Shown here: one piece after another, positions 8,650 through 64,000 of the stretch
Layout: each line of letters begins with the position of its first letter
How positions within the stretch are numbered: position 1 is the first letter of the stretch
Sequence record: MH494197.1
Reading direction: 5' to 3' (one strand)
DNA from: Escherichia phage CMSTMSU
DNA length: 64,000 nt
Translations under genes and position numbers: made by a program
Notes under the pieces: generated by a model
The model's input: the letters and a program-made list of their open reading frames with translations, nothing else
The model's database searches: none
Told to the model about the DNA's origin: nothing

Positions 8650-10119
8650 CTATAGATTATTTATATAAAGGACAAGGAAGACCCACAAAGGTCTTCCCTG
8701 TTTATAATCAATCTTCAGTTTTGGCGTGAAGTCAATCTTACGTAGTTCTTTCAACTCATCTTTATAGATGTTCCAAATCAAATCATGATTCGACAGGAGA
8801 TTGTTATATTCATCCATTAAATCCAAGTTATGTTGAATATCAGCTAGTACTGATTGATAATTGTCTTGGGTCCAACGATATGATGGGAAGTTTACGATGC
8901 TTTGAATATTCTCATCGGTTGCTTCGATTTCAGTGTTTAATGATTTAACAAACTCAACCATTTCTGAACGGTTAGCAAAACCCTTAACCTTAGCAATCAT
9001 ATCATTATCAAAACATTCTTTGATTAGAATCTTATAACGTACTTCAGCAGCACAATCATCAAGTTTCTTCTCATAGCGTTTCACATAGTATTTGAAACGG
9101 AATTCAACAAAGTCCTTAATCAAATCCATTGTGTTATCATAGACTTTAACCTTACCATTCTCACCTAGAACAGTTAGGATTTGTGTCATCTTCTTATGAA
9201 TGCCAAAGTATTCAATTACATCTTTCTCCACCCATTTAGCAGATGTTCCGCGTGGTAATTTGATTGTAATATCAATAACATCAGTACTATCATTATCATA
9301 ATCACGAATATCACCATCATCGCTCATCTTAATGAGTTTCTCGATGAATTTCTCAATACTGTAGTTAGGTGGTAGACCTGTTACTTTAACAGTACTGGCA
9401 TCAATTACTTGTGCTTTACCATAGAACTCATATTTGTTTTCATCAAGCTTAGTTACGATATCACTTGCACCACATGAAACATAGTATGGAGTCATTTCTT
9501 TTAATGGTTTTTATCAATAGCACGAATACAGTTATCAATAACATCTTCAATCTTATGTGGTAGAATTGTACTCTTATAACCTACTGACATACTATCGTTA
9601 CCAAACAAAGATAGTGGGATAATAGGTAAAAAGAAACTTGGTTCCATTGTAGTACCATCATAGTTCTCTTTCATTGGAATAATGTCAGAGTCACGCAGTA
9701 CTAACATTTCAGTACTTTTATTCTTTTAACATAAGTATAACGAGCAGAAGCTGGAGTACTGTTTACTTGTGTACCAAAACCACCACGTTTACCAATGAGT
9801 GGGTAGTTGTTTACTACTGGTGATGCTAGGTTCTGGAGAGTTCCAGATGCAGATGTATCACCGTGTAGATAGATACCATCACTAATCATTTTACCAGCAC
9901 ATGATACAGTTTTGATTTCACCACTAACTTTTGAGAGGGTGAAGATTGCTTTACGTTGTGAACTCTTAAGGCCATCAATCCCGGGATTGCACGGTCTAGT
10001 GTGTACATTGAATATTCTAGTGATGTGGTATTCACATAATCAGAACTGTTATAATCTAGTAGAGTTAGTGTTTGGTTATCGATGCTTTGATTTTCGGTTT
10101 TTACTTTTAGCCATTCCAT
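8650..10119 (-). CDS. gp52: DNA topoisomerase II medium subunit (T4 gp52-like, GyrA-type)
   Basis: YSMYTLDRAIPGLMALRVHNVK at N-terminus; fragments 9886..10119, 9701..9889, 9501..9707, 8650..9495 in different frames. Confidence 0.8.
8658..8665 (-). promoter_or_regulatory. T4-type late promoter TATAAATA
   Basis: exact TATAAATA on the minus strand about 20 nt upstream of the start of gene 6880..8638, just downstream of hairpin 8676-8697. Confidence 0.4.
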
Positions 10120-14563: not shown

Positions 14564-15147
<584 letters not shown>

Positions 15148-17086: not shown

Positions 17087-17166
17087 ATATTCTTCTCCAT
17101 AATACAAAACACTTTTGATTATTTATTGTTAAGAATCAAAATTATTTATGTATATCATTTAGTCTA

Positions 17167-19841: not shown

Positions 19842-22395
<2,554 letters not shown>

Positions 22396-24110: not shown

Positions 24111-24130
24111 ATATATTCCTTTATATTTGG

Positions 24131-24146
24131 AAAGATTAATCCGCCG
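24131..24146 (-). promoter_or_regulatory. intercistronic hairpin between nrdA and nrdB
   Basis: ATCCGC-CGAA-GCGGAT stem-loop between the nrdA stop (24161) and the nrdB RBS. Confidence 0.35.
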
Positions 24147-31294: not shown

Positions 31295-31740
31295 CATAAT
31301 TACTCCATATAAAATAAAAAGACCTCTGTCTTGCTTTATGATATTTATCACAATTAAGAAAAGGTCTGTTTGCTGATGCTAATATTTGTATCATTACCTG
31401 TTGTGATAAATTTTGTAATTCTTTTACCATTTAATTCTGTAGGTAAAACTAATGGTATTCCATTCAAACGCAAATCAACATCCATTGGTATTGCGAATTT
31501 GAAAGTACTAAGAGTACATTTACCCCATGAAACTGGAAGATTATAGAAAGATGCATTGTTATCTTTATATAGATCTATTTCAGTTTTACTACACTTACCA
31601 TCATGGGATAATCATGTACCATAATAGCCTCCAACAATCTCGACAAATTCATAGCACCTGTGAACTTAGAATCGATGATTGTTGGAGTTTACCATCACCT
31701 ATATCTACAACAGTATTAATTGTGTAGAAAGTATATGGTT

Positions 31741-33724: not shown

Positions 33725-34773
33725 TTACATCCACTTATCCGTTTGTGCTTTAATATAGAAAGGCTCGTCAACTATACTATCATGTATCAGTTGTAAACAA
33801 AATAATCTTCCAAATCTAGCACATGCTTCGTCAAAATCTTTAATGTGACGTATAGTACTTCCAACACGTACTGCCCCAAAATCTGGGAAAGAAACACTAA
33901 ATCCATATTCTAGTGCTTGTTCTATTGTTTGTAATCCATCCTTATCACGGTCAGGTACGATAACAATCTTTTTACCTTTTTCTTGTGCAGCTTTAAGTAC
34001 ATCTATTTGTACTGCTGACAATTTAAAGTTATTTGCAGAAACACCACCCATTAGTGCTGCATCCATTGGACCTTCACAAACTAATATAGTTTTAATTCGT
34101 TCATCTTGTAACAGATCATAATTATATAGAATATTAGTACTGACCTGATTAATAAAACGATAGGTACTTCCGGTCTTTAAGTTTGTGTCTAGCAGTATAT
34201 CCGATAATTTTACCGTTCATAACGTATGGTATGATAAATCGGTCATACATTTTATGTTCTTTAGCTGGACTCAATACAATTCTAAATCTAATAGATATGG
34301 ATTTCGCTCATTCACATGATTCAGAACACTAATAAATTCTTGTGGTATTTGCTCTTCTGGTAACGATGCCCATTCCCAGAATGTTTTTGAGTTCGGTGGT
34401 AATTCACGAACAGTTACACGTTGATATAGTTTAGATGCAGTAGTTTCTTGTTCTGCAAAGTCTCCACTATCAACCATTTCTTTAATGTAAAATTTAGCTA
34501 GTTCTATTTCCTTATCCTGTGCACCAAAGAAATGAGCAAAGACTCCATATCTTTGCTCATATATTTTCCAGTTGCCACCCAGTTTTTAGACTACAGTTAA
34601 AACAGTTATAAGAAACAGAACCATCTGCATTAAACATATGATTGCCGCGATTTTTAGTATCGGGGCGTGAATGACCACGGAACACACAAGCAGGACAATT
34701 GTGATGTGTCCACATACCAATTCGGTACTGGGTCATTCATGATTTGTGCCATGATGTTTTGTACAGCGTTCAT
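33725..34773 (-). CDS. gp61: DNA primase (T4 gp61-like), frameshifted
   Basis: N-terminal zinc ribbon HHNCPACVFRGHS..NCFNCSLKTGW in a shifted frame; Toprim IVIVPDRDKDG in ORF 33725..34066. Confidence 0.75.
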
Positions 34774-35515: not shown

Positions 35516-35801
35516 CTAATGTTTGTCTTGCTTGTCCACTTTCTGATAGCCATGATGGTTTTGTTTATCCAGAACTACATCGAATAATTTAGTATTGTTT
35601 CTAGCATCAAAAATCATGAATGTTAGATATTCGTTATCTTTTAGTAATGTATATTTTCCATCAGCATTATGCACAGTGAATGATAAATTGTTATTTGCAC
35701 CTCTGTATATTGTAAGTTTCTCATTGCTGTATGGCATATTAAAATTGCCCAATGATACTTCTTGGTTATAAGGGTACATAAACACGCCGTGATGAGCCAT
35801 A
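35516..35801 (-). CDS. hypothetical protein
   Basis: ORF 35516..36034, likely start MAHHGVFMYPYNQ. Confidence 0.3.
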
Positions 35802-36192
35802 GTTTTTCCTTCCATAAATAATAGGTATAAATTTATACTAATATTTATGGAACTCATATGAATCAATATAATACTATTCCACCATTTATCACGGTAGTTC
35901 AGTGTGATGGTAAAACTTTCATTGGTATTATCAAGATAAAAAGTAAACAGTATACTACTCTTTACTGCTTTGATGATATGGATGAACCAATGCAAGATGA
36001 ATTGTTGGGTATAGCACATGATTGGTGGTGGCAAAGCAACAGGTCAATTCCAGTCTGTCTATTCTTCCAAGAAGAGATGGAGAAATTTGAACCTTACACA
36101 CAGAGATTCGATACCTGCGGTGAATTTCGTTTGTGGTCCAGTAGTTTCTTTATGATTTGCCACAAAACGCATCAAGCGTCGTAATGTGGCTC

Positions 36193-41140: not shown

Positions 41141-41959
41141 TTAATTAGTTCGAGTATTATATTCGTACTCAAATGTATATACTAAATCTTTATCACAGTT
41201 TGGGTTACTTGCATCAAGAATATCACTGTTAGTAATCATCCATTCAATATAGTTCAATGGAACAGTTTCCATTGGTTCGCCTTTGTGTTTACCAAATGGC
41301 ATGAATTTATAACGCATTGGTGTATTACAGAATGTTACGATTTGTTCACCAATGTCACCATTAGGGTCAATATGTCCACGTTCAATCGCAACTTCAATCA
41401 ATTTGATTAGAACTTGATAACACATAAACACGTCATCTTTTGCTGCGTGAGCATTGACTGCACGATGTACATCACGATAGCAACCAAATTTATACCACAA
41501 ATAACTTAGAGTTAAGTTTTTGAATTCAGTGTCTTCTGCAAACATCTTCTTAGCTAAACGAAGGGTACAAATCCATTTATCTTCATCGAGCAAGTACTGC
41601 GAAACTGAGTTACGATATTTATATTCGTTATCTACCATCATTCGGCGGTCAAATTGAACGTTGTGTCCAATAAAATAATTACGACACCCCATTAGTGCGT
41701 CAATGTTTTCTAAGTCATCTTTATATCCAATGCAGTTTGCTACATCTTCAGTACTGATAAAATGCACAGCACTTGCTTCTGGTGGTATATCTTTTAGTGG
41801 TTTATAACGCAAAGTGTAGTTATCAATAGTATCAATATTCTCATGTGCACCGTGAGGATATGAAATACTAAATTCAATAATATCATCTTCACTTTCTACA
41901 CCAGTCGTTTCGGTGTCTAGTACTGATACGTTTGATAGGAACTCATCTAATTTTGTCAT
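41141..41959 (-). CDS. DnaQ-like 3-prime to 5-prime exonuclease (DEDDh family, DexA-like)
   Basis: LDTETTG, GHNVQFD, HRAVNAHAAKDD; intact 272-aa ORF. Confidence 0.7.
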   Translation of the reverse strand: MTKLDEFLSNVSVLDTETTGVESEDDIIEFSISYPHGAHENIDTIDNYTLRYKPLKDIPPEASAVHFISTEDVANCIGYKDDLENIDALMGCRNYFIGHNVQFDRRMMVDNEYKYRNSVSQYLLDEDKWICTLRLAKKMFAEDTEFKNLTLSYLWYKFGCYRDVHRAVNAHAAKDDVFMCYQVLIKLIEVAIERGHIDPNGDIGEQIVTFCNTPMRYKFMPFGKHKGEPMETVPLNYIEWMITNSDILDASNPNCDKDLVYTFEYEYNTRTN

Positions 41960-44841: not shown

Positions 44842-50045
<5,204 letters not shown>

Positions 50046-50076
50046 TTATAGCACATCTTTAATCACTTTCCCAGAT

Positions 50077-50152
50077 TTGATAAATAATATCATAGAGATC
50101 AGGGAATATTGCCTTAAATTTAAATGTGGTTTATATTTTTGATAAATAATAT
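50077..50152. promoter_or_regulatory. divergent promoter region with two copies of TTGATAAATAATAT
   Basis: exact 14-nt direct repeat at 50077-50090 and 50139-50152, the second 44 nt upstream of the ATG at 50196. Confidence 0.35.
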
Positions 50153-50195
50153 TAAGCAGGGTGTTCCTGCACAAAATTTGACAAGGAGATTTTTA

Positions 50196-52785: not shown

Positions 52786-52817
52786 GGGGAACTCCATGTT
52801 CCCCATTATTTATATTA
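52786..52817 (-). repeat. repeated intergenic element, copy 2: TATAAATA box plus GGGGAAC/GTTCCCC hairpin
   Basis: minus-strand sequence ATATAAATAATGGGGAACATGGAGTTCCCC, near-identical to 10134-10165. Confidence 0.6.
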
Positions 52818-53544
52818 GCAACCAGTTACGTAAATCTTGTATACTGCAATACCAGTGTCTAGAGTTACGTTTAGCATACCAGTTTTGGTAATACCTAGGG
52901 TAACAGATTCTGCGTTAGAAACGCGGGATAGAGCTTGTAGAACACGGTCAATGTTATAACCAAAACCAAGACCTAGTTCACCTTCAGTTTTAGAGAATGC
53001 TAGTGCACCAACGTGGTTACTTTTGTTCTTCTCACCAACGTGGAAGTAAAGAGTATCACCTTCAGTGTATGGAGTTACTAGAGAACTGAAAGATTTAAAC
53101 ACACCAGAGAAGCTTTTAGTTCCTGAACTTTAGCTGCACTAGGTGTAACCTGTACGTCATATGGTTGTTCGTGGAAACGAGGCTGGGCTGGAATTAGTTT
53201 TTCTGGTTGAACCATGAAAGTAGTGCTTGCATCTTCTGCTTTGAATGCTAGGCTCTTAACTGCACCATCTTTCAAATTAGAAGTGATAGTAGTTCCTTCA
53301 GTACTGTAAGTTTTAGAGACATTAGACCCTGTAGAAGACCTAGGTTACCAAGACCAAAACGACCTTGAACTTCTGGTACGTCTTCTTTAGTGTGAGCACG
53401 CATAACTAGGGTGCGGTCATCGGTGTATGCTTCCATGTAAACACGCTGTCCATCACCACGGTCTTCACTGCTAACTGCGATACAAGAAAAGTCGATGCCG
53501 TTGGTAGTGTTAACTAGGTCACGTAGTACGTTGCGTAGATCCAT
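52815..53544 (-). CDS. probable sliding clamp (T4 gp45-like), frameshifted
   Basis: about 240 aa in three fragments; N-terminal LRDLVNTTNGI resembles T4 gp45 LKNFATINSGI; size and location next to DNA polymerase fit. Confidence 0.4.
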
Positions 53545-59717: not shown

Positions 59718-59758
59718 GTATAAATCCCTTTAATGATTAATATATACTATATTTATTA

Positions 59759-60082
59759 CTATAGCAAGTCGTTTTCCATATCGTCAAGAACAGAATCAAC
59801 GATGTTCGCTGCTATCTTCTTAGGCATCTTGAACCACTCGGTGTTAGGTTGCCTTACTGCGTTCATTTGTTTTAGTCTTTTGTGAATTTCTTTCTCTGCT
59901 AAACGTGCATCTTCAAAGTGTACTTCATGGTATACCACAAAATCTCTAAAAGGTGTAGCAGTTTGATATGTCCTTAAACGCTCTGTCATTTCAGATTTAC
60001 TGGTAAATCCTATCTTAACATAATCAGGCCATGCATCATTTACTATAACATAACATATCTGTGACATAGAAAATATCTCCAT
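59759..60082 (-). CDS. T5orf172-domain protein (GIY-YIG-like)
   Basis: CYVIVNDAWPDYVKIGFTS...RLRTYQTATPF...EWFKMP is the typical T5orf172 pattern. Confidence 0.55.
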   Translation of the reverse strand: MEIFSMSQICYVIVNDAWPDYVKIGFTSKSEMTERLRTYQTATPFRDFVVYHEVHFEDARLAEKEIHKRLKQMNAVRQPNTEWFKMPKKIAANIVDSVLDDMENDLL

Positions 60083-60134
60083 CAGTAATATGAAGATATT
60101 TATTAATCAAGTAATTCGGAAATTTACCCCAGCA

Positions 60135-60341: not shown

Positions 60342-60499
60342 AGTTTCACTAGCTTCATCATAACCAACTAAAGTTCCGTATGGAACATTAATCTCAATTT
60401 TGAGTACTGACTCTTTAAGTACTCTTCTTTCTTAAAATGTATACAGTTAACATTGGTATCCTCCATAGTTTTATGTATTTAGAATTTTAGTCAAAGAAA

Positions 60500-60516
60500 A
60501 GGACTCGAAGAGTCCC
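60500..60516 (-). terminator. rho-independent terminator after the capsid gene
   Basis: GGACTC-GAA-GAGTCC hairpin followed on the minus strand by TTTTCTTTG. Confidence 0.5.
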
Positions 60517-60559
60517 TATTGTTTTAATTTCTTGATTAAATCTTTTAAATCGATTACAA

Positions 60560-61732
60560 TTACATGAAAGTAACGTTTTTGATAGCGATTTTGCTGTAGT
60601 AGTCAGCAGCGTTACCAAGAGATGAAGTACTATCAGTCAATTGTACATAACCATAACGAGTGAGGAAGGTTGTGACCAATTCACCAGTGTTAGGGTCCAT
60701 TACAGTACCGGAAGCCATTAGTGGGATGTATGGGCAATAGAACACACCAGCATCAGTTTCAGCGTTACCTTTGTAACCAATTAGGATATCTTCAACATCA
60801 CTTGCATAGGTATCAACGAAGATACGCATGGTGCTGTTTAGAGTACCAACAAATTTAACGTTAGTTGGAGCTTCGAAAGTACCTTCAGTAGTACGTGCAA
60901 AACTAGAAGTAGTTGCAGACTGTAGAATGGTTAGAGCGGTTGGAGAAACAACAGCCCAGTTCGCAGCACCACGTTTGGTACGACGAGCAACTTCGTTCGC
61001 TTGACGGTTGATTAGGGTAGCTAGAGCAGCGTGCTCGTCACCAACGAAGGTCGCAACACCAGTAACTTTAGATTGGTCATAAGTTACAGCAGCAGCACCG
61101 TAGTGCACGTAGACGGCTTAGTAGCTCTTGGTCGATTTCAACGGTAACTTCTTGAGCGATTGCAGCCATTAGTTCAGCTTCAACGTCGATACCATGTTGG
61201 GATTGTGCATCTTGTGCAGATTCAACAGTCCAACGTGCAGATAGACGACGAGATTTCGCTTCAACAGTTTCACGTAGAATACGGATGTTAACGCGACGAC
61301 CCATAGTACCTTCTAGTTGGCTAGTAGGAGCAGCTTGTGGGTTGCTGTTGTCTGCGTTTAGGTCACCAGTATAAGACTTAGCGATTTTGTATGGAGAAAG
61401 CATTTCTTCACCAGCGATAACACCGGAGCGTTGTCAGCATATTGAACACGTAGGGTGTGGATCTGACCAACTGGGCCAGTCATTGGCTGAACACCGATGA
61501 TTTCGTTAGCGATTACGGTTGGCATAACACGACGCATAATTGGTAGAATCACTTTGTTTAGAGTAGCGATGTTACCAGCAGTGGTTGCACCAGAAGTAGC
61601 AGATTCGTTTAGCATTAGTTTACGATGGTTATCAAGTACGGTTTCCATTACGGACTTACGAGTACCTTGTAGACCTTCAACTAGTTTCTCTTTAACTGCT
61701 ACCCATTTGGATTCATTTAGTAGTTGTGACAT
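60560..61732 (-). CDS. gp23: major capsid protein (T4 gp23-like), frameshifted
   Basis: VIANEIIGVQPMTGPVGQIHTLRVQY matches the T4 gp23 IAFDICGVQPMNSPTGQVFALRAVY region; three fragments; late-gene codon usage. Confidence 0.85.
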
Positions 61733-61776: not shown

Positions 61777-61784
61777 TATTTATA
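61777..61784 (-). promoter_or_regulatory. T4-type late promoter TATAAATA upstream of the capsid gene
   Basis: exact TATAAATA on the minus strand 45 nt upstream of the gp23-like start. Confidence 0.5.
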
Positions 61785-61803
61785 GAACTGAAAAATTTGA
61801 TTA

Positions 61804-62931
61804 TTAAAATGCTTTAAAATGTTTATTTTTATTGATACCAGAAAGAACATCGAGTTCTTTTAGGAATGCCATATCGTCAGCGGTCATTTCTTCGCTTTCA
61901 ACAATAGCCTGACGGTTGCCAGTGATTACTTTACCTTCTGCAAGAGTTCTCTTAGCGGAAGACTGAACTGCTTGACGAGTGGTAGCAGATTCATTTACTT
62001 TAGTACCGTTAAGTACTGACTTATGGTACTTGCTGAAATCGTCTTTAAGCTTTTCTGTAGGAGAAGTAGCTAGAAGGGATTCCATAATTTGTTTCTGTTG
62101 TGTAGTTAGTGGCTTAACTAGTTCAGACATAATCGCATTACGAGCTTGTGAATCTTCCATAATACGTAGTTTGGTTTTAGCAGCTTTAACTTCACTTACA
62201 GTTTCATTTAGTTCTTTCTTAACTTGAGCAATTTCGTCTTCTTTAGACTTGATTGATTCAGTTAGGGAACGTAGTAGTGAATTCTCATTAAATTGTTTGA
62301 CATTAAACTCTTGAGCAAATGCTTCAAAGATTTTACGACCAAACATATTTTGTTTTGCTTCAACAAGATCTTCTTTCAAAGCGTATAGGTTTTTCTGAGT
62401 AGTTTCTGCAATATATTTAGCAGCACTTTCAGATGTACGTTTGATGAAGTTGTTACGTGCTTCAGCAATTTGACGGAGCCTTCAGCTAGTTTAACGCGAG
62501 TTTCAACTAGTTGACGTTTCTCGATGTGGAATTCTTTTAGCTCTTCTGCTAGGATACCGTTAGAGAAATTAACGAATTTATCCATGCATTCTTGAAGATG
62601 CTTACGTTCTTTACGCATTTGTTTAACTTCTTCAGCCAAAACAGAGTTAGAAAACGCAGAGAAATTACTTAGGGTTTTGCGGAGAGTTACACGATCTTCT
62701 ACAAGACGTTTTTCTCTTCATATACTGCACCCATTTCTTCAGCGATAACTTGAGTAACCATAGTATTTAGACCTTCGGTTAGCTCAGACAAATCTTGTTT
62801 GTAGCGGCCTTTCATTTCTTCACGCATTTCTGCGGCAAGTGTGTTTTTTCTTCATTCCATGCTTCCTGAATTAGCTGTTTTGCCTCATCAGAAAGAGATG
62901 ATTCTTTTAGAAGCTTTTCTAATTTAGACAT
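61804..62931 (-). CDS. gp22: prohead scaffold protein (T4 gp22-like), frameshifted
   Basis: coiled-coil-like Glu/Lys-rich protein between protease and capsid genes; AAGGAGAG RBS before ATG at 62929-62931. Confidence 0.55.
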
Positions 62932-62978
62932 TCGTTCTCTCCTTTAAGTACTGAAATATCTGTACTTCAACATACAAA

Positions 62979-62986
62979 TATTTATA
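62979..62986 (-). promoter_or_regulatory. T4-type late promoter TATAAATA upstream of the scaffold gene
   Basis: exact TATAAATA on the minus strand 48 nt upstream of the scaffold start. Confidence 0.5.
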
Positions 62987-63636: not shown

Positions 63637-64000
63637 TTATTTAGTGTTAGATTTTTGGTTGTGATTTTGGTAGTGGAGAACGAGATTTAGAAGCGGTATT
63701 TTTGGCTTCGCAACATCTTTCATTTCGCCACGAGCATTTTTACCTAGGTCTTCATCAGTGTGGGACATAGCATCTTCGTTTTCAAAATCATAATCTACTT
63801 GTTTTTCGGAAGCTTTAGCGAATTTCACTGGAGCAACACCTTGAACTGGAGATTTAGCTTCTGGAGCAACTGGGGACTTGGTATTAACGCCAGCTTTTTC
63901 TTTCTTATCAACCGCAGCAACTTGCTTAAGTTTGAAAGACTCACCAACTTTCTCATCACCGAATTGTACATCAGCAAATTCGTCTTCAGATTCTTCACCA
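63637..64000 (-). CDS. prohead core-type acidic protein, partial (runs off window end)
   Basis: open frame from the window edge to 63637; acidic, upstream of the protease as T4 gp67/gp68 are. Confidence 0.35.
   Translation of the reverse strand, partial: GEESEDEFADVQFGDEKVGESFKLKQVAAVDKKEKAGVNTKSPVAPEAKSPVQGVAPVKFAKASEKQVDYDFENEDAMSHTDEDLGKNARGEMKDVAKPKIPLLNLVLHYQNHNQKSNTK

Follow-up and report, generated by a model that had tools for sequence, protein, structure and literature searches.

ATAAATA boxes before the capsid and scaffold-like genes of an Asteriusvirus-like jumbo coliphage as probable late promoters of the gp55 type

Late promoters of T4-like and RaK2-like phages

Late promoters of phage T4 carry TATAAATA at -13 to -6 and are served by the sigma factor gp55, the co-activator gp33, and the sliding clamp gp45 (PMC2988020, PMC7892883). 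Of 50 T4 late sites, 32 show the complete 8-mer and a further 9 carry A at -13, numbers that we take as published for our comparison (PMC2988020). Many T4-like phages keep the T(-13) only poorly (Nolan et al. 2006, PMC1524935), the divergent T4-like phages RB49, KVP40, S-PM2, and 44RR have late promoters, and Aeh1 uses CTAAATA (PMC1524935). All five are Straboviridae with a recognizable gp33 and gp45 and a clamp-binding tail on gp55 (PMC2988020), unlike the phage described here. An in silico analysis of the RaK2-like jumbo phages CBB, from Pectobacterium, and GAP32, from Cronobacter, reported both a gp55-like sigma and the ATAAATA motif, with 35 sites in CBB (Buttimer et al. 2017, PMC5259590). 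The RaK2 paper is without promoter analysis, the PA5oct transcriptome paper gives sigma-70-like promoters only, and our literature search for Asteriusvirus transcriptomics gave nothing useful.

The DNA analyzed here, which we call the window, is a stretch of 64,000 nucleotides from Escherichia phage CMSTMSU (MH494197.1), an Asteriusvirus-like jumbo coliphage with 98-99% identity to phage fEgEco12. It carries ~360 single-base deletions, apparently sequencing errors. Genome-wide motif counts refer to the fEgEco12 genome (353 kb) and use a simple gene caller whose calls agree with the annotation for 82 stops and 71 starts out of 86 each. Although the window phage belongs to a different genus from CBB and GAP32 (PMC5259590), it shares with them the same 7-mer followed by an A/T-rich stretch before structural genes, with 35 such upstream sites in fEgEco12, which encodes both a gp55-like and an RpoD-like sigma. 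The boxes agree with the late-promoter class described for CBB and GAP32 in consensus, position, number (a few dozen per genome), and the presence of a gp55-like sigma. As the motif and a gp55-like sigma were already predicted in these sister genera, no new principle emerges here, and only one question reaches further, namely whether these phages still need the sliding clamp for late transcription.

The boxes before the capsid and scaffold-like genes

An earlier sequence-only reading of the window had placed exact T4-type late boxes, TATAAATA, 45 to 48 nt before the capsid and scaffold starts, and both are there on the minus strand. The first (61777..61784, putative functional core ATAAATA at 61777-61783) lies 45 nt before the ATG of the major capsid protein gene (61732), and the second (62979..62986, core 62979-62985) lies 48 nt before the ATG of a scaffold-like gene (62931). 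The capsid gene, of the gp23 family, was located by mapping (60560..61732, minus strand); it is split into three ORFs in the window because of single-base deletions, and its fEgEco12 ortholog matches Pfam Gp23 with E = 9.5e-90. Directly past it, an intrinsic-terminator-like hairpin is followed by a T-run (60499..60517, minus strand), and the same hairpin is found in fEgEco12. The scaffold-like gene (61823..62931, minus strand), frameshifted in the window, sits between the prohead protease and capsid genes. Its product belongs to PHROG 10922, a family of unknown function, and we infer a scaffold function from the syntenic order protease-scaffold-capsid and from an ortholog labeled 'scaffolding protein' in MH791411.1.

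Both boxes are conserved while their flanks diverge. The capsid box is kept at 44-50 nt in 15 of 15 relatives with a capsid-protein identity of at least 80%, and the ATAAATA of the scaffold box is kept in 15 of 15 related loci, in most of which the protein is 59-74% identical; the relatives in these counts are close kin and thus non-independent samples. At the capsid promoter, all relatives outside the fEgEco12/121Q lineage have G before ATAAATA; within that lineage, a T completes the 8/8 match to T4. A palindrome, TCTGTAC-N7-GTACAGA, is also conserved in relatives 3′ of the scaffold box.

In silico, ATAAATA is non-random in placement and orientation, depleted elsewhere, conserved, and associated with structural genes. 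The genome-wide count proposed as a check on the sequence-only reading found 49 copies in fEgEco12, compared with 124-234 for other A5T2 words, and 35 of the 49 lie upstream of gene starts against a background of 9% (P = 5e-26). By upstream bias, the motif ranks first of 128 A/T-only 7-mers and second of all 7-mers, after the sigma-70-like GTATAAT, and it is also the top upstream-biased 7-mer across 65 distant loci. Control words of the same composition are upstream in 9-21% of cases, except TAAATAA, which overlaps the motif. Of the 35 upstream boxes, 22 stand directly before a gene annotated as structural in fEgEco12, among them genes for sheath, tube, baseplate, capsid, fibers, and virion proteins.

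The 35 sites also define the shape of the promoter. From -40 to +25, an information content of 0.45 bit or more is reached only within the box and at the 6th and 7th bases past it. The 6th base is A at 24 sites and G at 6 (P = 2e-5, in silico), the five bases preceding it are A/T-rich, and the distance from box to ATG is fairly fixed at 30-48 nt. Hexamers resembling a -35 element occur at 9 of the 35 sites compared with 45 of 175 controls, which is no enrichment, and no TG signal of an extended -10 rises above control. The boxes therefore have neither the pair of TTGACA-like -35 and TATAAT-like -10 elements at 16-18 bp nor the TG-extended -10 of sigma-70-type promoters. Early and replication genes are marked by a separate, sigma-70-like class (TGTATAATG / TGCTATAAT, TTGACA-N17-TAGAAT).

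Compared with T4, positions -12 to -6 are identical, a -35 element is likewise missing, the box runs into an A/T-rich stretch, and at most sites a purine stands 6 nt past the box, where T4 transcription starts. As in T4, boxes precede genes for capsid, tail, and baseplate whichever strand these are on, and the placement before structural genes of both strands agrees with the late-gene placement of the T4 type. Unlike in T4, the base before ATAAATA is unconstrained (A11 G9 T8 C7), so that T(-13) is found at just 8 of the 35 sites, and the variants CTAAATA, GTAAATA, and TTAAATA show an upstream bias too. This resembles the divergent T4-like phages, whose boxes vary at the first position and, in some lineages, may have C at -12, matching the use of ATAAATA and CTAAATA here. 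The sequence-only reading was thus right in allowing for a relaxed consensus and in calling both sites exact matches, but the label 'exact T4-type' misleads, since the T4 type fits the ATAAATA core without a -35 element and not the strict 8-bp box including T(-13), as the G at the capsid box of relatives outside the lineage also illustrates. In terms of sequence, the signal is ATAAATA with a TAAATA core, and the two 8/8 matches to T4 are coincidental because the base at T4 -13 is unconstrained in this phage. For Asteriusvirus-like jumbo coliphages, we therefore propose to define late promoters by ATAAATA after any base, the lack of a -35 element, and an A 6 nt past the box as the probable start; the exact T4 8-mer is the wrong search criterion.

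The gp55-like sigma, the clamp, and the proposed reading of the boxes

We consider it likely that the two boxes belong to a late-promoter class characterized by ATAAATA and the lack of a -35 element and read by a gp55-like sigma. A gp55 homolog and a PCNA-fold clamp are both present. In fEgEco12, the homolog is encoded by g336, ~10.5 kb past the right end of the window, and matches PHROG 234, 'late sigma transcription factor', with E = 1.5e-16, while its family profile matches T4 gp55 in PDB 7D7C with E = 1.2e-7 and an hhalign probability of 92%. Residues N13, F86, Y97, and T99 of T4 gp55, which belong to the pockets that take up A(-12), A(-9), and A(-8) (PMC7892883), are identical in the g336 alignment; L54, R57, and H95 are replaced by I, K, and F, respectively. 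The gene adjoins gp47/gp46-like genes, as T4 gene 55 does, and is preceded by TGCTATAAT.

The homolog differs from T4 gp55 in its length of ~280 aa, with an insertion of ~125 residues, and in its C-terminus. The hydrophobic/acidic clamp-binding motif (SLDFLYEAND in T4) is absent from g336 and its enterobacterial relatives, whose last residues are ...ERKNEDGSI or ...NGTV. Family members at a greater distance have ...FDFGD or ...LFDWLG at this end, and with FDFGD-type tails in these distant members, a loss of the tail would date to within the enterobacterial clade.

The window itself encodes the sliding clamp (52815..53544, minus strand), frameshifted, whose PCNA fold was recognized with AlphaFold2 (pLDDT 91.9) and Foldseek, which matched it to PCNA in the PDB with E = 1e-10 and a TM score of ~0.7. 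A clamp-loader gene is annotated as well, so that, as in T4, both clamp and loader are encoded, but unlike in T4 the clamp has no detectable sequence similarity to gp45, and neither single-sequence nor profile searches gave it a sequence-level match. Single-sequence searches of the g336 protein and the clamp against PDB sequences returned nothing meaningful. With phmmer, T4 gp55, gp33, and gp45 had no significant match among the six-frame ORFs of fEgEco12, gp55 included. In contrast to T4, gp33 was not detected among these ORFs by phmmer and a 26-sequence HMM (best E 1.1), a search of low sensitivity in which gp55 itself was missed by the single-sequence approach, and tblastn with T4 gp33 had only T4-like (Straboviridae-type) phages among the matches listed. 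Iyer et al. described a gp33 ortholog in group 2 jumbo phages, among which the Asteriusvirus-like clade is not named (PMC7824862). On a purely speculative level, a scan of C-terminal tails for motifs resembling clamp-binding ones picked out the polymerase (...NNGFFTW), the RpoD-like sigma (...GYEFEDF), and a 41-aa ORF (LFDWLMGE). The proposal of gp55-type late transcription made in the sequence-only reading is thus borne out as far as the boxes behave as a T4-related late class and fEgEco12 encodes a gp55 homolog, but that gene lies outside the window, gp33 was not detected, and the clamp-binding tail is lacking.

In the mechanism that we propose, the host RNA polymerase, carrying either sigma-70 or the RpoD-like sigma of the phage, would first read extended -10 promoters of the TGCTATAAT type, one of which would drive the gp55-like gene that it fronts. 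The gp55-like protein, a minimal sigma, would then displace sigma-70 from the E. coli core enzyme and flip the A bases of ATAAATA into the pockets conserved with T4 gp55, and the resulting holoenzyme would transcribe capsid, scaffold, tail, baseplate, and fiber genes on either strand. Transcription would be late, might be coupled to the clamp, and would probably start at the A 6 nt past the box, leaving a leader of ~25-45 nt before the ribosome-binding site. A further, more tentative idea is that late transcription in enterobacterial RaK2/Asteriusvirus-like phages is a rewired T4 system that kept the ATAAATA pockets, gained the ~125-residue insertion, lost the tail, and has no recognizable gp33, so that late promoters might fire without the sliding clamp or through another adaptor.

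Among the alternatives, the one that survives best, although we regard it as unlikely, is that the boxes are late promoters with another reader, either the RpoD-like sigma g519 or host sigma-70 with a phage activator, and that the gp55-like protein serves other promoters. The g519 product has sigma-70 regions 2 and 3 and an aromatic/acidic tail, KGYEFEDF, loosely like the clamp-binding tails of T4 that the gp55-like protein is without, and ATAAATA is two or three changes from a TATAAT-like -10 element. However, the early and replication genes have their own, far more sigma-70-like class, neither a -35 nor a TG signal exceeds control levels at the ATAAATA sites, g336 conserves the residues with which T4 gp55 binds the A bases of the motif (PMC7892883), and the authors of the CBB study assign their second class a different motif, TGAAACG...TATA (PMC5259590).

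We give less weight still to the possibility that ATAAATA is an mRNA-leader or DNA site, for instance for processing, for translation, or as an operator bound by a late regulator, with transcription starting elsewhere. The fairly fixed distance to the ATG would fit a leader element too, and the palindrome 3′ of the scaffold box could bind a protein. Nevertheless, no sigma-70-type promoter was predicted on the minus strand near the capsid and scaffold-like genes, leaving no alternative promoter detectable upstream of them, and several boxes come directly after a terminator or gene end. The motif is also strongly avoided elsewhere, genes included, as is usual for promoters but not for RNA elements, and it is identical to the experimentally proven late promoter of T4.

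Other boxes in the window

ATAAATA is depleted in the window, with 16 copies compared with 28.4 +/- 5.5 expected, and 15 of the 16 are followed within 29-109 nt by a start on the same strand, in most cases that of a structural gene (P = 3e-15, background 9%). We thus mapped 15 candidate late boxes, which head 12 gene starts. Besides the two described above, the minus strand has boxes preceded by T at 8658..8664, 39 nt before the virion structural gene g420, and at 52807..52813, 58 nt before g360, the head of g360-g361 (GroES-like)-g362 (virion protein). Boxes preceded by G are found at 15134..15140, 29 nt before g415, which heads the virion-protein block g415-g416-g417, at 31342..31348, 45 nt before the structural gene g389, and at 46185..46191, 30 nt before the structural gene g370 and within the 3′ end of the terminase gene. 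Those preceded by A are at 17120..17126, 37 nt before the hypothetical gene g411, at 59750..59756, 33 nt before the tail fiber gene g353, and at 60097..60103, 30 nt before the T5orf172/GIY-YIG nuclease gene g352. A second copy near g411, preceded by C (17143-17149, minus strand), is specific to the window. On the plus strand, GATAAATAATAT occurs twice, with boxes at 50080..50086 and 50142..50148, 109 and 47 nt before the virion structural gene g364; the sequence-only reading had noted both copies correctly, with a gene start one base off (50196, where the ATG is at 50195).

The full 8-mer TATAAATA occurs 5 times in the window, all on the gene-rich minus strand, and for 4 of the 5 copies a start follows after 39-58 nt (binomial P = 3e-4). 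The only orphan copy (41616..41623, minus strand) is inside the exonuclease gene g374, with the next start 491 nt away, and is probably a chance occurrence or an internal promoter. It is very improbable that the two matches before the capsid and scaffold-like genes are a chance A/T-rich word in A/T-rich intergenic DNA, for although the count of the 8-mer in the window does not exceed expectation (5 observed compared with 7.5 +/- 2.7 from shuffles), most copies of ATAAATA are rightly oriented and placed in both window and genome, words of the same composition other than the overlapping TAAATAA are so placed far less often, and both sites are conserved amid diverged flanks.

Also rejected is the suggestion, made in the sequence-only reading, of strand-specific classes with TATAAATA for minus-strand late genes and G/T variants for plus-strand ones. 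All five exact 8-mers of the window are on the minus strand and both g364 boxes begin with G, but ~90% of genes are on one strand anyway, and the bases preceding the minus-strand boxes of the window are mixed (T, 5; G, 3; A, 3; C, 2), with G at 15134, 31342, and 46185, A at 17120, 59750, and 60097, and C at 17143 and 35842. The two strands of fEgEco12 are similarly mixed, one having A7 T6 G5 C4 and the other A4 G4 C3 T2.

Variant boxes may add to this set. CTAAATA at 63638..63644 (minus strand), which precedes the ATG of the prohead protease gene (63615) by 23 nt, may be a weak or variant box and is not kept in most relatives. GTAAATA at 19864..19870 (plus strand) precedes the ATG of the plus-strand holin gene (19968) by 98 nt and may be the late promoter of the holin operon. 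TTAAATA at 20625-20631, within the TTAAATAAAAG that the sequence-only reading had listed upstream of 20645, is present as described but was rejected as a promoter. It ends 14 nt short of the ATG at 20645, shares bases with the stop codon of the preceding holin gene, and enters the ribosome-binding site, and it is most likely the junction of stop codon and ribosome-binding site between two genes.

In fEgEco12, the endonuclease VII homolog g339 has a box as well. The box definition also aids annotation, for example at a divergent gene pair at 35.8 kb that is mis-annotated in fEgEco12. Here, a plus-strand box (35814..35820), 38 nt before a plus-strand ORF (ATG 35858, PHROG 11637), faces a minus-strand box preceded by C (35842..35848), 42 nt before the corrected start (35800) of the virion structural gene g383, a correction based on the alignment to PHROG 14467, which begins at residue 1 of the shorter gene model.

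Predicted late boxes of the capsid and scaffold-like genes

The TATAAATA box, an 8-mer of T4 late type that the sequence-only reading had placed 45 and 48 nt before the capsid and scaffold-like starts, was borne out at both distances on the minus strand, at 61777-61784 (45 nt upstream of ATG 61732) and at 62979-62986 (48 nt upstream of ATG 62931), and a GGAG ribosome-binding site precedes both ATGs. The first ATG starts the major capsid protein (Pfam Gp23, E = 9.5e-90) and the second a 371-residue protein, encoded between the prohead protease and capsid genes and annotated as 'scaffolding protein' in one relative, for which synteny suggests a scaffold function. No terminator was detected in the stretch that separates the scaffold-like gene from the capsid promoter, so transcripts from both boxes may cover the capsid gene. 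A strong intrinsic-terminator-like hairpin lies directly 3' of the capsid gene (60499-60517, minus strand).

Gene starts were taken from the annotation of Escherichia phage fEgEco12 (PP777464.1, 374.7 kb) and mapped onto the window, as the window's own genes are broken by what looks like sequencing error. The final 4 kb of the window match fEgEco12 at 98.8% over their full length and PBECO4-group phages (genus Asteriusvirus) at ~90%, and fEgEco12 202462-267598 is the counterpart of the entire window in reverse orientation (98.2-98.6%). Of the 362 indels that separate the window from fEgEco12, 361 are single-base deletions in the window and 1 is an insertion, with 248/362 in homopolymer context. 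This excess of deletions carries the signature of sequencing error and looks like uncorrected error, not real pseudogenes. Most long window genes are split into short ORFs, including those for DNA polymerase and the clamp, and single-base deletions explain why the capsid (60560-61732) and scaffold-like (61823-62931) genes are seen as strings of them. The fEgEco12 gene g398 (774 bp, hypothetical, no Pfam match for its protein), located between two ribonucleotide reductase subunit genes, is missing from the window at 24124-24138 and may be a mobile insertion.

Across 15 IMG/VR loci with a capsid protein at least 80% identical, ATAAATA stands 44-50 nt upstream of the capsid ATG in 15/15, within differing flanks, and the base before it is G in all except the 121Q/fEgEco12 lineage. 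The scaffold-gene box is likewise kept in 15/15, mostly preceded by T. In more distant relatives (capsid identity 63-72%) the capsid gene follows its upstream neighbour with almost no gap, and hence there is no separate capsid promoter; ATAAATA is the top upstream-biased 7-mer in their loci as well. Directly after the scaffold-gene box, relatives (L006-L015) share the palindrome TCTGTAC-N7-GTACAGA, which overlaps the predicted start site. Its left arm is degenerate (TTTGTAT) in the window, at about 62953-62978 (minus strand), and the palindrome may be an operator or due to chance.

Distribution and shape of the ATAAATA motif

Counted by position relative to gene starts, the motif is clearly non-random. 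In the window, 15/16 ATAAATA copies are placed 29-109 nt ahead of a start codon on their own strand (P = 3e-15, background 9%), the sole exception being an exact TATAAATA within an exonuclease gene, at 41616. The 8-mer TATAAATA is not enriched (5 copies vs 7.5 +/- 2.7 expected), and ATAAATA is an avoided word, with 16 copies vs 28.4 +/- 5.5 in shuffles, 100/100 of which had at least 16; the informative word is the 7-mer, not the 8-mer. Two of the window boxes are intragenic by the fEgEco12 annotation of g382 and g383 (window 35798-35860; fEgEco12 230411-230822), which is wrong: the PHROG profiles point to a virion gene with a later start and to an ORF on the opposite strand. The virion protein family aligns only from residue 74 of annotated g383, which places the shorter gene's start at ATG 35800 (minus), and the unannotated ORF (ATG 35858, plus) matches PHROG 11637 along its whole length. 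The correct arrangement is a divergent gene pair with one box per gene. The 57 bp between the two genes hold the boxes face to face, with predicted transcripts overlapping by ~10 nt.

The test was extended to the assembled fEgEco12 sequence (370 kb), with counts on 353 kb after exclusion of the right-end copy of the terminal repeat and genes called by a simple ORF and ribosome-binding-site rule that agrees with 82/86 annotated stops and 71/86 starts. ATAAATA occurs 49 times, vs 124-234 for other words of the same composition, and 35/49 copies are found 15-120 nt ahead of a start on the same strand, a placement shared by 9% of all positions (P = 5e-26). For control words the share is 9-21%, except for TAAATAA, which overlaps the motif. 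Box-to-ATG distances cluster at 30-48 nt. The genes behind the 35 boxes include tail sheath, tail tube, baseplate wedge and hub, tail tip, capsid, scaffold-like, tail fibre and many 'virion structural' genes. Among all 16,384 7-mers, ATAAATA ranks second for upstream bias, behind GTATAAT, part of a sigma-70-like TGTATAATG class.

The suggestion of a relaxed consensus holds, and that of strand-specific promoter classes is refuted: the base 5' of the 35 boxes is A11, G9, T8, C7, mixed on both strands, so T4's T(-13) is outside this signal. CTAAATA (18/35 copies upstream), GTAAATA (15/31) and TTAAATA (18/70) are also upstream-biased, standing before neck, tail tube, long tail fibre and other virion genes, which makes TAAATA the hard core. 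From -40 to +25, information is found only in the box and in the 6th-7th bases after it; the 6th is A in 24/35, G in 6/35 and C in 0/35 (P = 2e-5), and as the T4 box spans -13 to -6 (PMC1524935), this A falls at exactly +1. Two GATAAATAATAT copies noted before a plus-strand virion gene (ATG 50195) are real. As for TTAAATAAAAG, proposed as a variant upstream of 20645, its end is only 14 nt away from the ATG and it shares bases with the stop codon of the holin gene, and we rejected it as a promoter; for that plus-strand operon, GTAAATA at 19864-19870 makes a more convincing candidate.

Similar signals have been described. In CBB, ATAAATA followed by an A/T-rich stretch occurs at 35 locations before structural genes and was likened to the T4 late promoter, with the same description, by reference, for GAP32 (Buttimer et al., PMC5259590). 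Many T4-like phages show poor conservation of T(-13), and Aeh1 uses CTAAATA (Nolan et al., PMC1524935), while in T4 itself 32/50 late sites are perfect matches and nine have A at -13 (PMC2988020). The late motif and a gp55-like sigma had already been predicted for CBB and, by reference, GAP32; we found no promoter analysis for Asteriusvirus phages in the literature.

Sigma factors and a second promoter class

The inference of gp55-type late transcription is well supported in silico, and we regard the boxes as late promoters of the T4/gp55 kind with a relaxed ATAAATA consensus. No sigma gene lies within the 64-kb window; ~10.5 kb past its right end, fEgEco12 g336 matches PHROG 12791 and PHROG 234, 'late sigma transcription factor', and its family profile (34 sequences) matches T4 gp55 in PDB 7D7C (E = 1.2e-7; hhalign probability 92%). 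Like T4 gene 55, g336 adjoins gp47/gp46-like genes. In the alignment, g336 shares N13, F86, Y97 and T99 with gp55, has conservative replacements of L54 and R57 and carries F in place of H95; by cryo-EM, these gp55 residues build the pockets that hold A(-12), A(-9) and A(-8) (PMC7892883). Such a pattern fits a conserved ATAAATA with indifference to -13. The main rival explanation is that an RpoD-like sigma, also phage-encoded (g519, fEgEco12 306080-307048), reads ATAAATA instead of the gp55-like protein; -35-like hexamers near the boxes are no commoner than in shifted controls.

The likely true start of g336 (MTNRPKRKKYLNN...) has TGCTATAAT upstream (fEgEco12 191007-191015), an extended -10 type also found before replication genes, which is consistent with a cascade that passes from early or middle to late genes. 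This second, sigma-70-like class (TGCTATAAT / TGTATAATG) stands before replication and nucleotide-metabolism genes and before the single gp55-like gene, for example at 50046-50054 (minus) and upstream of starts at 34773, 28403, 22714 and 5384 in the window, whose left end has TTGACA-N17-TAGAAT before the start at 551. Beyond the window, at fEgEco12 330398-348760, most of ~12 tandem minus-strand genes annotated as RCC1-like ('chromosome condensation regulator') carry a near-identical TTAAATA-tag-TATAAT 26-27 nt before the ATG, a composite of a late-box variant and a perfect -10 hexamer.

Comparison with T4

Unlike T4 gp55, g336 carries an insertion of ~125 residues that separates the N-terminal helix from the sigma region-2-like domain, and it has no clamp-binding-like tail: gp55, gp33 and gp43 of T4 end in SLDFLYEAND, TLDFLL and SLDFLFG, whereas the C-termini of g336 and of its enterobacterial relatives read ...ERKNEDGSI or ...NGTV, and those of more distant family members ...FDFGD or ...LFDWLG. 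A clamp gene is present in the window (52815-53544), recognisable only by its predicted structure (pLDDT 92, PCNA matches E = 1e-10). Searches for the co-activator gp33 with tblastn, phmmer and an HMM, which are insensitive, gave no homologue; for CBB, a gp55-like sigma was reported and gp33 and gp45 homologues were not found (PMC5259590). Late transcription here might, though with lower probability, have become uncoupled from the sliding clamp, a point of some interest. Tails loosely like the clamp-binding ones of T4 occur on g519 (KGYEFEDF) and on a 41-residue ORF (g279, fEgEco12 120365-120490; LFDWLMGE), and the DNA polymerase (fEgEco12 209404-212409) ends in NNGFFTW.

Endonuclease VII and T5orf172/GIY-YIG nuclease genes are among those behind the 35 boxes, and this predicted late nuclease expression parallels T4. 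The T5orf172/GIY-YIG gene lies between the capsid and tail-fibre genes and has its own ATAAATA box (window 60067-60103, minus strand; fEgEco12 195109-195637).
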